Shown here in pieces: positions 7,455-14,291 of a DNA stretch of 14,291 bases. The translations under genes and the position numbers were made by a program. Origin of the DNA: Candidatus Jordarchaeia archaeon (GTDB taxonomy: Archaea; Asgardarchaeota; Jordiarchaeia; Jordiarchaeales; Jordiarchaeaceae); assembly GCA_029856435.1 (NCBI GenBank), contig JAHQXB010000050.1, positions 1-14,291 of the forward strand, read 5' to 3'. The notes under the pieces were generated by a model, which saw only the letters and a list, made by a program, of their open reading frames with translations, searched no databases and was not told the origin of the DNA. The first letter of the stretch is position 1. The number at the start of each line of letters is the position of its first letter.

Positions 7455-7463
7455 AATCTTTAA
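7455..7463. repeat. Left copy of 9-bp target-site duplication AATCTTTAA
   Basis: Identical to 7642-7650 and directly abuts the left TIR. Confidence 0.9.
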
Positions 7464-7641
7464 GAACTTGTTAAAAAATAAGTCTTTTTCGCAGTTTGGT
7501 TGCAATTTCTTCAAGGGTTGGGGTGGTGGTGCAAAGCCTTCCTTTAGGGTATATTTCTGCCTTGGAACCCCCAGAATCACCCATTTACACCCACGGAAAA
7601 GCCAGTCAGAAACCCTGAAAAAGCAATTTTTTAACAAGTTC
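7464..7641. mobile_element. MITE, 178 bp, non-autonomous
   Basis: Perfect 16-bp terminal inverted repeats GAACTTGTTAAAAAAT (7464-7479) and ATTTTTTAACAAGTTC (7626-7641), flanked by a perfect 9-bp direct repeat. No transposase inside. Confidence 0.9.
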
Positions 7642-8482
7642 AATCTTTAAAGAACTCTTTTATCGGCCTTCTGCAGCTCGGACACCTTTCATCCTTTCTT
7701 AAATGCTCCATTAGTTCTTCTCGGCAAGCGCTCTCGAAACAGTAGGGACACATAACTTGATCGTCATTCTCGGTCAGTATTTTTCCGCAGAGCATACACC
7801 TAGTGATTTCTTCCTCCATCTCCTCCTCATAGTTGAAATCTGCTTGTGTGCTTGGAAGATTAGGTGCTCCAATCTCGTAAACGCCCTGCTCAATTATCAT
7901 GTTCCTGATTTGGATTTGGACCTCCTTGGGCGTGTGGCTTGCAATGTCCAGAAGTTTGTCCGCTTCTTCTTTTAGAATTGCTGCGTTAGATTTGGAAGCT
8001 ACAATCCTCCAGACCTCCCTTAGGAGAGGAAGGTTTCCAAGCAAGGGACTATAGAGCATGTTGGCAGACTCGTATGTGCGACCATCTTCAAAGTACCTAT
8101 TTACAGCATCTTTGAACATGCCCATTCTTAGAAACTGTATTATGGGGTTACTATTTGGCCCCCCTTCCTTCTCATACTGTTCAATTATCTTGAACACTTG
8201 GCGGGTTCTAAAAATACTATATATCATACTACCCAGTATACAGAAGAGAAAAACGAAGTCAAAAAGGAGATAAGAATAACTTGGTGTGGGAGGAACAGTT
8301 GTATTGAAGTAAACGAAGTAAAACAGGGAAGTGAGGTAAAGCATAATTTGCTCCCATGTACCTGTGGTGAAGTACGAAGCTATCTGCCAAATAAAGTATG
8401 CGGATATTATGCAGGTGATTAGACAGATTATCAACAATCTTCTTTTTAGTTTGTACTTTATTACTTCAGCCAAGGAAGCCAC
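7640..8482 (-). CDS. Membrane-anchored protein with C-terminal RING-like zinc finger (putative E3 ligase), 280 aa
   Basis: Two to three N-terminal TM segments. C-terminal CMLC-x12-CPYC-x4-C-x2-E-x10-CPSCR (7670-7798). GTG start preceded by GAGTAG. Confidence 0.8.
   Translation of the reverse strand: MASLAEVIKYKLKRRLLIICLITCIISAYFIWQIASYFTTGTWEQIMLYLTSLFYFVYFNTTVPPTPSYSYLLFDFVFLFCILGSMIYSIFRTRQVFKIIEQYEKEGGPNSNPIIQFLRMGMFKDAVNRYFEDGRTYESANMLYSPLLGNLPLLREVWRIVASKSNAAILKEEADKLLDIASHTPKEVQIQIRNMIIEQGVYEIGAPNLPSTQADFNYEEEMEEEITRCMLCGKILTENDDQVMCPYCFESACREELMEHLRKDERCPSCRRPIKEFFKD
7642..7650. repeat. Right copy of 9-bp target-site duplication AATCTTTAA
   Basis: Identical to 7455-7463 and directly abuts the right TIR. 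Confidence 0.9.
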
Positions 8483-8945: not shown

Positions 8946-10454
8946 GTGAGCCCCATTACAAGCAACACTACCAAAACATATGAGGAGATAAACGAGAAAA
9001 TCAAGAAGGGAGACGCAGTAGTAGTAACAGCCGAAGAAATGGTAAAAATAGTAGAAGAACAGGGCGAAAAAAAAGCCGCAAAAGAAATCGACGTAGTAAC
9101 AACAGGAACATTTGGAGCCATGTGTTCAAGTGGGGCTTTTCTAAACTTTGGACACAGTGACCCTCCTATAAAAATGGAGCAGTTATGGCTGAATGATGTC
9201 GAAGCCTACCATGGAAACGCGGCGGTGGACTGTTACATTGGCGTCACAAAAATGAGTACTATTAAGCCTTTCAAGTATGGGGGCGGCCACGTAATAGAGG
9301 ATTTGGTTAGTGGAAAAGAGATAACGCTGAGAGCTAGAGCTTACGGAACGGATTGTTATCCTAGGACAAGCCTTGAAACCACCTTTAACATAGAGGATCT
9401 TAACCAGGCGATTCTCTGTAATCCCAGAAACGCTTATCAAAGGTATAACGCAGCTACTAATGGGCGTGACGAAACAATTTACACCTATATGGGTAAACTC
9501 TTGGCGAACTATGGTAATGTTACATATTCTGGTTCCGGCTGTTTAAGTCCCCTTTATAATGATCCAGATTACGAAACAATAGGTATTGGAACTAGAATAT
9601 TTCTGGGCGGAGGAGTGGGCTACGTGATTGGGGAAGGAACCCAACATAATCCCAGAAACCACTTTGGAACTATAATGGTTAAGGGAGACCTAAAGCAGAT
9701 GAGCCCTGAGTATCTAAAAGGGGCCACCTTCACCAAGTATGGTACTACTATGTATGTGGGGCTAGGGATTCCAATACCCATATTAAATGAAGGGCTAGCC
9801 AGAAAAACAGCCATAAGTGATGCTGACATAACTACGGAAGTGGTAGACTACGGAGTTCCCAGAAGGGATAGACCGTCCCTCAGAAAAGTCACATATCAAG
9901 AACTCAAATCGGGAAGAATTGAACTTAACGGAAAAACAGTTAAGGTCTCCTCGCTTTCCAGCCTAAAAATGGCGAGAAGAGTGGCTCAAAACTTGAAAAA
10001 GTGGATAGAAGAAGGAAGATTCTTTTTAAGTAAACCAGTTGAAACACTCCCAACAACAAGTGAATTTAAACCCATGAAAATTACGAAGGAAATTCAGTAT
10101 GTTAGAAGTATAATGATTCCTGCAGTGACAACAACCACGGAGGCCAGCATCCACGAAGTAGCCAAACTAATCGTGGAAAAGAACGTCAACCACATAGTCG
10201 TGGTGGACAACGAGAAAACCCTTAAAGGGATAGTTACTTCCTTCGACATCACCCGAGCCGTAGCAAATAATAAAGAAAAACTGGAGGAAATAGTAGTTAG
10301 GAGAGTCTACACAGCAAAGCCAGACGACCCCCTGGACGCAGTGGTAAAAGAGCTGGAAACCCATAAAATTTCCGCACTTCCCGTAATAGATGAGAAAAAG
10401 AAAGTTTTAGGAATAGTCACCAGCGAGGAAATATCCAAACTGGTGGCCAGGTAA
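8946..10454 (+). CDS. L-aspartate semialdehyde sulfurtransferase (homocysteine biosynthesis, DUF39 plus CBS pair; MJ0100/MA1821 family), 502 aa
   Basis: Family motifs EEINEKIKKG.AVVVTAEE, DVVTTGTFGAMCSSG, GGHVIEDL, NPRNAYQ, IYTYMG and GIGTRIFLGG, followed by tandem CBS domains (NHIVVVD..GIVT..DI; ISALPVID..GIVT..EI). Confidence 0.92.
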   Translation: MSPITSNTTKTYEEINEKIKKGDAVVVTAEEMVKIVEEQGEKKAAKEIDVVTTGTFGAMCSSGAFLNFGHSDPPIKMEQLWLNDVEAYHGNAAVDCYIGVTKMSTIKPFKYGGGHVIEDLVSGKEITLRARAYGTDCYPRTSLETTFNIEDLNQAILCNPRNAYQRYNAATNGRDETIYTYMGKLLANYGNVTYSGSGCLSPLYNDPDYETIGIGTRIFLGGGVGYVIGEGTQHNPRNHFGTIMVKGDLKQMSPEYLKGATFTKYGTTMYVGLGIPIPILNEGLARKTAISDADITTEVVDYGVPRRDRPSLRKVTYQELKSGRIELNGKTVKVSSLSSLKMARRVAQNLKKWIEEGRFFLSKPVETLPTTSEFKPMKITKEIQYVRSIMIPAVTTTTEASIHEVAKLIVEKNVNHIVVVDNEKTLKGIVTSFDITRAVANNKEKLEEIVVRRVYTAKPDDPLDAVVKELETHKISALPVIDEKKKVLGIVTSEEISKLVAR

Positions 10455-10463
10455 GGTGAAAAA

Positions 10464-10847
10464 ATGAAGATAATGATAATATTCGGTTCCAATAGAGTAG
10501 GTGAACCTATCACCGCAAATGTAATATTAGAAAAAAAGGTGCCCTTCAATATTCTAACCGCCAAAATCGATAAAAAAGGCGGCGAAATGCTCATAGAGGC
10601 ACCAGACGATAAAGCAGAGGAATTAATACAAGCATTTAAAAGTAGAGGAATAAGGGTTGAAACCCGAAAATTTGTAGAGATACTGTCCCACAAGTGTACA
10701 CACTGCGGGCAGTGTTACTCAATCTGCCCTGTAGATGCAATAGTATACGAGGAGGACAAATCCATAACCCTAAAACAAGAGGCTTGCGTGGGCTGTCTTC
10801 AATGTATTGATAGTTGCCCCTTCGAAGCTATAGTTAAAATAAGCTGA
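10464..10847 (+). CDS. NIL-domain 2x[4Fe-4S] ferredoxin, iron-sulfur partner of the sulfurtransferase (MJ0099/MA1822 family), 127 aa
   Basis: NIL-type N-terminus (EPITA....VPFNILTA.I...GGEMLIE) and the motifs CTHCGQCYSICP and CVGCLQCIDSCP. SD GGTGA lies directly after the upstream stop, 9 bp intergenic. Confidence 0.9.
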   Translation: MKIMIIFGSNRVGEPITANVILEKKVPFNILTAKIDKKGGEMLIEAPDDKAEELIQAFKSRGIRVETRKFVEILSHKCTHCGQCYSICPVDAIVYEEDKSITLKQEACVGCLQCIDSCPFEAIVKIS

Positions 10848-13626: not shown

Positions 13627-14291
13627 GGGAACTGTGCTGAAGCCCATGCTAACAGTTCTAAAATAGCGGTGTTTAAATAGAATTATGCTGAACTACAACT
13701 AGATGCCTATGGAGCGATTATACACCCTCAAAGAGGCGAAACAACTACTGGGCGTCACGACGCGAACCATCCAGAAATGGGACAAGCAGGGCAAGCTACG
13801 AGTGGTCAGAACAGCCGGCGGTCGAAGACGGATACCCGAAAGTGAAATCAAGCGACTGCTTCACATCCACGAGCAGAGAGAGGTCATAGGGTACGCCCGC
13901 GTGTCGTCAGCATCCCAGCGCGACGACCTCCAAAGACAGGTGGAACTGCTCAAACAGCAGGGAGTTACAAAAATACTGACAGACATAGGCTCTGGATTGA
14001 ACGAAAAACGGAAAAACTACCAGAAACTCCTACAGCTAGTGGCGGATCGCAAGGTGGATAAGATTATGCTAACTTACCCCGATCGGTTAACCCGCTTCGG
14101 CTTCCACACTCTCCAAATGCTACTCGCCACCTTTGGAACAGAGGTGGAAGTGGCCAACGACAACGCCTACCGGACACCCTACGAGGAACTGGTCGAAGAC
14201 CTGCTTACCATCGTCGCTCATTTTTGCGGAAAACTCTACGGTACACGCTCCCACAAGCAAAAAAAGGTGGTCGAACGTGTTAAAAACATTC
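13627..14291 (+). mobile_element. IS607-family insertion sequence, left part (truncated by the window edge)
   Basis: Contains the IS607 TnpA. GC jumps (hand count 34/60 at 13741-13800 versus 24/60 at 12121-12180). Short direct repeats lie upstream of tnpA. The exact left end is inferred, at the GG run 13626-13629. Confidence 0.8.
13703..14291 (+). CDS. tnpA: IS607 TnpA serine recombinase (MerR-type HTH plus resolvase domain), 3-prime partial, not in the ORF track
   Basis: My translation: [49 protein letters not shown]...[19 protein letters not shown]...[14 protein letters not shown]...[10 protein letters not shown]...[25 protein letters not shown]. No stop before the edge. ATG 13709 is an alternative start. 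Confidence 0.95.

Follow-up and report, generated by a model that had tools for sequence, protein, structure and literature searches.

A membrane-anchored RING-type protein of the class Jordarchaeia as a candidate ubiquitin ligase

In eukaryotic cells, ubiquitylation at membranes drives both the quality control of the endoplasmic reticulum (ER) and endosomal sorting. The membrane-anchored RING ligases present diverse architectures, e.g., Hrd1, which combines a multi-span channel-like transmembrane (TM) domain with a RING-H2 finger, or Doa10/MARCH proteins, where an N-terminal RING-CH finger is followed by TM helices. As regards the RING fold itself, the U-box, as well as Rbx1 with its Asp ligand, provide precedents of E3 ligases with altered ligand sets. 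On the archaeal side, the Asgard RING ligases known so far are, to our knowledge, small soluble proteins of ubiquitin operons. The reference is srfp, the E3 of the operons grouping ubiquitin, E1 and E2 genes in Caldiarchaeum subterraneum and Asgard archaea (PMC5654768). Since an Asgard RING E3 ubiquitylates UEV-Vps23 in vitro, the ubiquitin cascade is functional in the Asgard group (bioRxiv 10.1101/2023.07.25.550441). Among human RNF proteins, 49 contain TM domains (PMC4021871), and the eukaryotic TMEM129 spans the membrane three times and ends in an atypical RING (PMC5127023). In addition, fingers devoid of one zinc site, namely the SP-RING and the UBR4 hemiRING, can still be active E3 modules (PMC10873205).

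The window considered here, i.e., the whole stretch of 14,291 nucleotides analysed, encodes a protein of another layout (Table 1), which the original prediction described as a membrane-anchored, RING-type E3-like protein. In the literature searched, mostly outside subscription journals, no description of a membrane-anchored Asgard RING ligase was found.

Table 1. Features of the RING gene and neighbouring elements in the window
Feature	Position	Strand	Basis or description
Whole gene, 280 aa	7640..8482	-	GTG start 8482; stop TGA 7640-7642
N-terminal basic segment, residues 1-15, 5 Lys/Arg, predicted cytoplasmic	8438..8482	-	Charge count, alignment
Transmembrane helix 1, ~residues 16-38	8369..8437	-	Kyte-Doolittle, helix in AF2 model
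Loop, residues 39-70, zero Lys/Arg, predicted extracellular	8273..8368	-	Hydropathy, alignment, AF2 pLDDT ~47-51
Transmembrane helix 2, ~residues 71-91, then conserved RTRQ motif	8210..8272	-	Hydropathy, alignment
Cytoplasmic helical-repeat domain, residues 92-205, seven helices	7868..8209	-	AF2 pLDDT 85-93
Flexible acidic linker, residues 206-226	7805..7867	-	pLDDT <50
RING-type finger, residues 227-276	7655..7804	-	Residue script, hhalign, Pfam-passing relatives, structural matches
Glu256 codon GAA, ligand position 6	7715..7717	-	His CAC/CAT in most orthologues
178-bp MITE	7464..7641		Perfect 16-nt terminal inverted repeats
PK_C-like gene, 191 aa	6848..7423	+	Stand-alone, weak pyruvate-kinase C-terminal (PK_C) domain
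HcyBio-CBS gene	8946..10454	+	HcyBio (COG1900-type homocysteine synthesis) + CBS
127-aa ORF	10464..10847	+	Follows HcyBio-CBS gene
MerR-HTH + serine-resolvase N-terminal domain gene	13703..14290	+	IS607-type transposase layout; runs past window end

The RING-type finger and its zinc ligands

Seven of the ten Cys of the protein lie within its last 52 residues. The ligand pairs originally proposed, namely C229 and C232, C245 and C248, C253 and E256, and C267 and C270, were each confirmed by script, as were H260 and R271; the finger also contains L231, P246, P268, R272 and P273. In a cross-brace arrangement, C229, C232, C253 and E256 would constitute zinc site 1, and C245, C248, C267 and C270 zinc site 2. 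As a loose RING pattern is rare in this genome (15 of the 11,654 stop-to-stop frames of at least 70 aa) and six of the Cys (C229, C232, C245, C248, C267, and C270) never vary among 17 orthologues, even at identities as low as 38%, the pattern cannot be ascribed to chance.

Taken alone, the protein scores under the Pfam gathering cut-offs, with 20.3 bits against 29.1 for Prok-RING_1 (E = 5.5e-4) and 13.4 bits against 27.3 for zf-RING_2 (E = 0.1), the latter aligned across the full length of the model. None of 12 orthologues passes the cut-off of a Pfam RING model, the best E-values being 4.7e-4 (zf-RING_2) and 2e-5 (Prok-RING_1). In a phmmer search of 1.8 billion proteins with this protein, the finger matched other proteins at E-values from 7e-10 (P0016) to 1e-3; these relatives share the pattern C-x2-C-x12-C-P-x-C-x4-H-x2-H-x3-W-x6-C-P-x-C, and P0025, P0018, and P0021 exceed the cut-offs of Prok-RING_1 and/or zf-RING_2. 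Aligned by hhalign with nine archaeal small RINGs, among them the 83-aa RING from the ubiquitin operon of the same genome (contig C40), the family matched with a probability of 99.0% (E = 4.2e-18, 61 columns) and all eight ligand columns in register. The membership in zf-RING or Prok-RING models, put forward as a check of the original prediction, was thus recovered through relatives but not for the protein itself. Within the genome, the closest match to the finger is again the 83-aa RING, encoded beside ubiquitin, E2, and E1 on C40. As judged from sequence comparison, the finger is paralogous to the small RING from the archaeon's own ubiquitin operon, from which it has diverged.

For fold prediction, the soluble part of the protein (residues 92-280) was modelled by AF2 together with 12 orthologues drawn from the two families of the class, and the finger came out as a beta-beta-alpha structure (pLDDT 75-86). 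A sequence profile search of the PDB with the family alignment gave nothing significant, the top matches (E 0.07-0.7) being a mixture of a GPCR chimera, zinc ribbons, and RINGs. By structural comparison, the modelled finger matches RNF165 at 1.3-1.6 A over 48-49 residues (TM 0.85), the Prp19 U-box at 1.5 A over 50 residues and TRIM37 at 2.4 A over 59 residues (Z 7.1, 29% identity), with further matches to Ring1B, EL5, Arkadia, RNF4, RNF38, and RNF12. As every structural match of the finger is a RING or U-box domain, with no zinc ribbon among them, a cross-brace is favoured over the zinc-ribbon fold, which the original prediction had regarded as contrary to its own reading. On profile homology and predicted fold taken together, the finger is a true RING domain, with the cross-brace as its predicted arrangement.

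The ligand set was originally described as Cys7-Glu, which stands for this very protein but not as a feature of the family, position 256 being occupied by His in 12 of the 17 orthologues, including all four of the distant sister family. From this distribution, the ancestral set appears as Cys7-His and Glu256 as derived. Glu256 is found only in the window protein, in three species with 93-95% identity to it and in one species with 73% identity, the last contributing two of the 17 orthologue rows (L037 and P0004); Asp occupies this position in P0031, which is more distantly related. At position 253, Cys is replaced by His in L038-type sequences. A sequencing slip is excluded for Glu256, since the change from CAC/CAT to GAA/GAG requires two substitutions. 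With respect to a single or double origin of the His-to-Glu change, the tree is an unresolved polytomy. Within the Glu256 clade, the RING displays a dN/dS of 0.03-0.06 at dS 0.4-0.9, as low as that of the helical domain and estimated from close pairs only, dS being saturated in more distant ones; the Glu-bearing finger is thus kept by strong purifying selection. Glu256 may act as a carboxylate zinc ligand or, alternatively, site 1 may be weakened without loss of the fold.

Membrane anchor, helical domain and gene neighbourhood

TM segments were called by Kyte-Doolittle hydropathy (19-residue window, threshold 1.6) and scanned across the family. While 2-3 TM helices had been envisaged, there are most likely two full spans (~16-38 and 71-91) and no third, as the short aromatic-rich helix 46-59 stays under the threshold in all family members. 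The same stretch is short and Asn-rich in the sister family, and the whole loop 39-70 is the least conserved part of the protein. Nearly every family member scanned has two above-threshold spans; a single one shows the second span only. Membrane-proximal Lys/Arg occur solely at the N-terminus (five) and after helix 2 (four), from which the positive-inside rule predicts a two-helix hairpin with both termini in the cytoplasm. A cytoplasmic C-terminus would suit a Cys-rich zinc finger. Kinship of the hairpin with Hrd1 was considered and rejected, the Z-scores of 8.4-9.2 (VIA-align, all PDB representatives) falling in the range of generic helical hairpins; with the full-length model, VIA-align against the same set gave matches to the TM hairpin only.

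The helical-repeat domain is the most conserved part of the protein (dN/dS 0.02-0.08). A profile search for longer proteins containing it returned orthologues only, and the ESM Atlas gave no usable match. No specific fold relative was accepted, since the candidates (designed repeats and CID/VHS/MIF4G-like domains, Z 6-7.8) remain under the bar set by the tool for helical repeats. Likewise, the helical domain plus RING was rejected as a protocoatomer-like module, with TM-scores of 0.2-0.27 and rmsd >14 A. Between the two domains, the acidic linker with YEEEMEEE claimed from the outset was located by script at residues 218-225; it is variable yet Glu-rich in all orthologues (dN/dS 0.09-0.33).

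Full-length relatives, 270-283 aa long, constitute a small family restricted to Jordarchaeia/Freyarchaeia, and phmmer against 1.8 billion representatives recovered full-length similarity in two 50%-identity clusters only. A single-copy orthologue is present in nine of the 11 genomes of the class, with both families represented, and the two genomes where it is missing are the least complete ones (73% and 83%). Some database entries are shorter (182-218 aa); the one checked, P0009 (locus L030), sits in a full 281-aa frame, and such entries appear to result from mis-called starts or cut contigs. Besides this family, the same genome encodes a 220-aa protein (contig C34, 13599-14258, minus strand) with hydrophobic segment(s) and an srfp-type RING, and one or two srfp-type RINGs similarly accompany hydrophobic segments in P0023 and P0024 (the latter labelled "Freyarchaeota"). 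From these three proteins, the TM-plus-RING layout arose more than once in the lineage.

At the 5' end of the gene, a TTG at 8473, three codons after the GTG, offers an alternative start giving 277 aa, as in the database protein P0001. A GGTG lies 6 nt upstream of this TTG and a TTTAAAT box ~30 bases upstream, so that either codon may be the start. At the other end, the MITE, of which ~20 copies exist in this Jordarchaeia genome, inserted exactly at the stop codon; its 9-bp target duplication, AATCTTTAA (7455-7463 and 7642-7650), spans the last two codons and the first base of the stop. The former TAA consequently became TGA, the last two bases being supplied by the MITE end, and the protein sequence is thus unaltered. 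The insert is absent from close relatives.

In both families of the class, the RING gene is flanked by the convergent PK_C-like gene and the divergent HcyBio-CBS gene, which looks like general synteny and offers no clue to function. In all class genomes examined, the PK_C-like gene and the RING gene converge, and the PK_C-like product is 65-82% identical, a conservation far above that of the RING protein. The HcyBio-CBS gene and the 127-aa ORF form a pair separated from the RING gene by a 463-bp spacer, an arrangement also kept in both families; on related contigs (L030 and L031), the gene equivalent to the 127-aa ORF encodes NIL and ferredoxin domains.

Ligase or docking module at the membrane

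Regarding potential partners, the E1, E2 and ubiquitin genes on which the original prediction depended are found in the genome, with over-cut-off matches for four UQ_con (E2 fold), three ubiquitin, and six ThiF. They include at least three separate E1/E2 clusters, namely (i) on C40 (RING, ubiquitin, E2, and E1), (ii) on C81, and (iii) on C139, and other RING proteins are encoded as well. Across the class, E2 genes are present in 11 of 11 genomes, ubiquitin and E1 likewise. The genome also carries ESCRT-I/II/III genes, with Vps28, EAP30, and two Snf7. On C81 (28727-30834), Vps28, EAP30, and a frame of 270 aa for a UEV-like E2 fold adjoin one another; a ubiquitin/E2/E1 cluster accompanied by three RING genes lies ~15 kb away on the same contig.

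The residues of the finger expected to face an E2 are for the most part retained. The residue before ligand 2 (L231) is L, I, or V in all orthologues, and the Pro and the linchpin Arg attributed to the terminal CPSCR hold beyond this protein, P268 being invariant after ligand 7 and position 271, after ligand 8, being R/K in 15 of the 17 orthologues (Gly then Arg in the other two). Four residues after ligand 6, the Trp of RING-H2 fingers and of srfp-type relatives is indeed replaced, as had been noted, by H260 here and by His or Tyr in all orthologues; such a Trp is not universal in active RING/U-box ligases. In the small RING of C. subterraneum, I30Q abolishes ubiquitylation and R69A impairs it, while with W58A mono- and di-ubiquitylation remain and chain building is weakened (PMC5654768). 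L231 and R271 correspond to I30 and R69, respectively.

Altogether, it is moderately probable that this Jordarchaeia-specific, membrane-tethered RING protein acts as an E3 ligase at the membrane. The RING would recruit a ubiquitin-charged E2 from one of the E1/E2/ubiquitin sets of the genome, with L231, P268, and the helix residue H260 as putative E2 contacts and R271 as the linchpin. The helical domain could hold a membrane-proximal substrate or partner, and the flexible acidic linker would allow the RING-E2~ubiquitin assembly to reach membrane-proximal lysines, so that membrane or membrane-associated proteins would be ubiquitylated. For this protein, the analysis shows the architecture, the homology to RINGs, the predicted fold, conservation under purifying selection and a ubiquitin cascade in the genome; how the protein sits in the membrane, its binding of zinc, its partner E2, its activity as a ligase, its substrates and a role in quality control are what we infer.

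The main rival explanation, which we regard as rather unlikely, is a RING fold without a ligase role, i.e., a structural or docking module assembling or dimerising a membrane complex where the helical domain does the real work. Three observations keep it alive: the E2-contact helix has His or Tyr in place of Trp throughout the family, ligand 6 is Glu in this clade, and operon linkage is missing, the gene never being adjacent to E1, E2, or ubiquitin genes in both families of the class examined. The higher conservation of the helical domain is in keeping with such a role, as are weak whole-chain Foldseek matches, whose top list (GATOR2, IFT-A, alpha-COP, Ufd2, and CHIP, E 0.07-0.4) includes the solenoid-plus-RING scaffolds GATOR2, IFT-A, and alpha-COP at E 0.07-0.2; the RING-like fingers following a solenoid in GATOR2 and alpha-COP may be structural modules. 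A second-look structural alignment, however, restricts the GATOR2 matches to the RING. Furthermore, the nearest relatives of the finger are RINGs of ubiquitin operons, and L231, P268, and the R/K linchpin, which persist even in orthologues of 38% identity, have no obvious role beyond E2~Ub binding.

More improbable is a ligase devoted to another ubiquitin-like modifier or to an E2 set of its own; in the Glu256 clade, its finger would then be of the one-zinc, SP-RING-like type. The six ThiF-type E1-like genes and the three or more E1/E2 clusters (C40, C81, and C139) would leave room for it, and, as with the SP-RING and UBR4 hemiRING, fingers can be active without one zinc site (PMC10873205), but the gene is linked to no single cluster and most orthologues possess the full Cys7-His set; it would in any case be a refinement of the candidate-ligase explanation and not a separate one. 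Very improbable, finally, is a double zinc ribbon, i.e., two sequential ribbons at the C-terminus binding nucleic acid or another ligand, where the weak Pfam matches to DZR_2, Zn_ribbon_6, and DZR (E 0.04-0.6) and the name "Zn-ribbon protein" given by one source to a truncated homologue are opposed by local structural matches of RING/U-box type only, by a beta-beta-alpha core and helix placement fitting a RING, and by a profile match to RINGs at E 4e-18.

Returning to the candidate ligase, a bolder version of it can be formulated, which is tentative and, taken as a whole, unlikely. The protein would be a working membrane-anchored ubiquitin ligase, with a carboxylate replacing the His zinc ligand, marking membrane proteins for UEV-Vps23/ESCRT or for extraction and proteasomal breakdown, and would represent a functional prokaryotic forerunner of eukaryotic membrane-protein ubiquitylation. 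If true, the same logic as in ERAD, MARCH, and endosomal sorting would apply.

Comparison with known RING ligases

The closest known system is srfp, with which the finger is homologous (hhalign 99%) and shares the unusual spacing C-x2-C-x12-C-x2-C-x4-(C/H)-x2-(H)-x10-C-x2-C, as well as a hydrophobic residue before ligand 2 and a Pro after ligand 7. While srfp is soluble, ~80 aa long and operon-encoded, the Jordarchaeia protein is a 280-aa protein with two TM helices and a private helical domain, encoded away from any ubiquitin cluster. The two further diverge in their residues: in srfp, ligands 5 and 6 are both His and the +4 residue is Trp, with Gly as the linchpin residue of this genome's copy, whereas in the Jordarchaeia protein ligand 5 is Cys, ligand 6 His/Glu, the +4 residue His/Tyr and the linchpin Arg/Lys.

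With eukaryotic TM RING ligases, the likeness resides in the layout, i.e., a membrane anchor followed by a linker-borne cytosolic RING, and the parallel originally drawn with eukaryotic membrane ligases holds at that level for TMEM129-type proteins. By analogy, such a layout would presumably place E2~ubiquitin at the membrane. Outside the RING, there is no relation in sequence or fold, and sequence, profile and structure searches detected no eukaryotic homologue of the TM hairpin or of the helical domain, so that an analogy is proposed and orthology is not claimed. Respective to Hrd1 and Doa10/MARCH, the Jordarchaeia protein differs by its two TM helices, its C-terminal RING and its ligand pattern. 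With SP-RING, UBR4 hemiRING, U-box, and Rbx1, it has in common a RING fold that departs from the full Cys/His ligand set; compared to these variants, the Jordarchaeia finger changes one ligand out of eight, for a potential carboxylate and in one clade.

What belongs to an already known kind is thus the archaeal RING ligase, and what is new here is the membrane anchor, the private helical domain and the Cys7-His/Glu ligands. The His-to-Glu swap, kept under purifying selection, provides a small natural experiment on the metal sites of RINGs. As the genome also has ESCRT-I/II/III and a UEV-like protein, this membrane RING, conserved across the class, is a concrete and cloneable candidate for asking whether membrane proteins were already handled through ubiquitin before eukaryotes arose.
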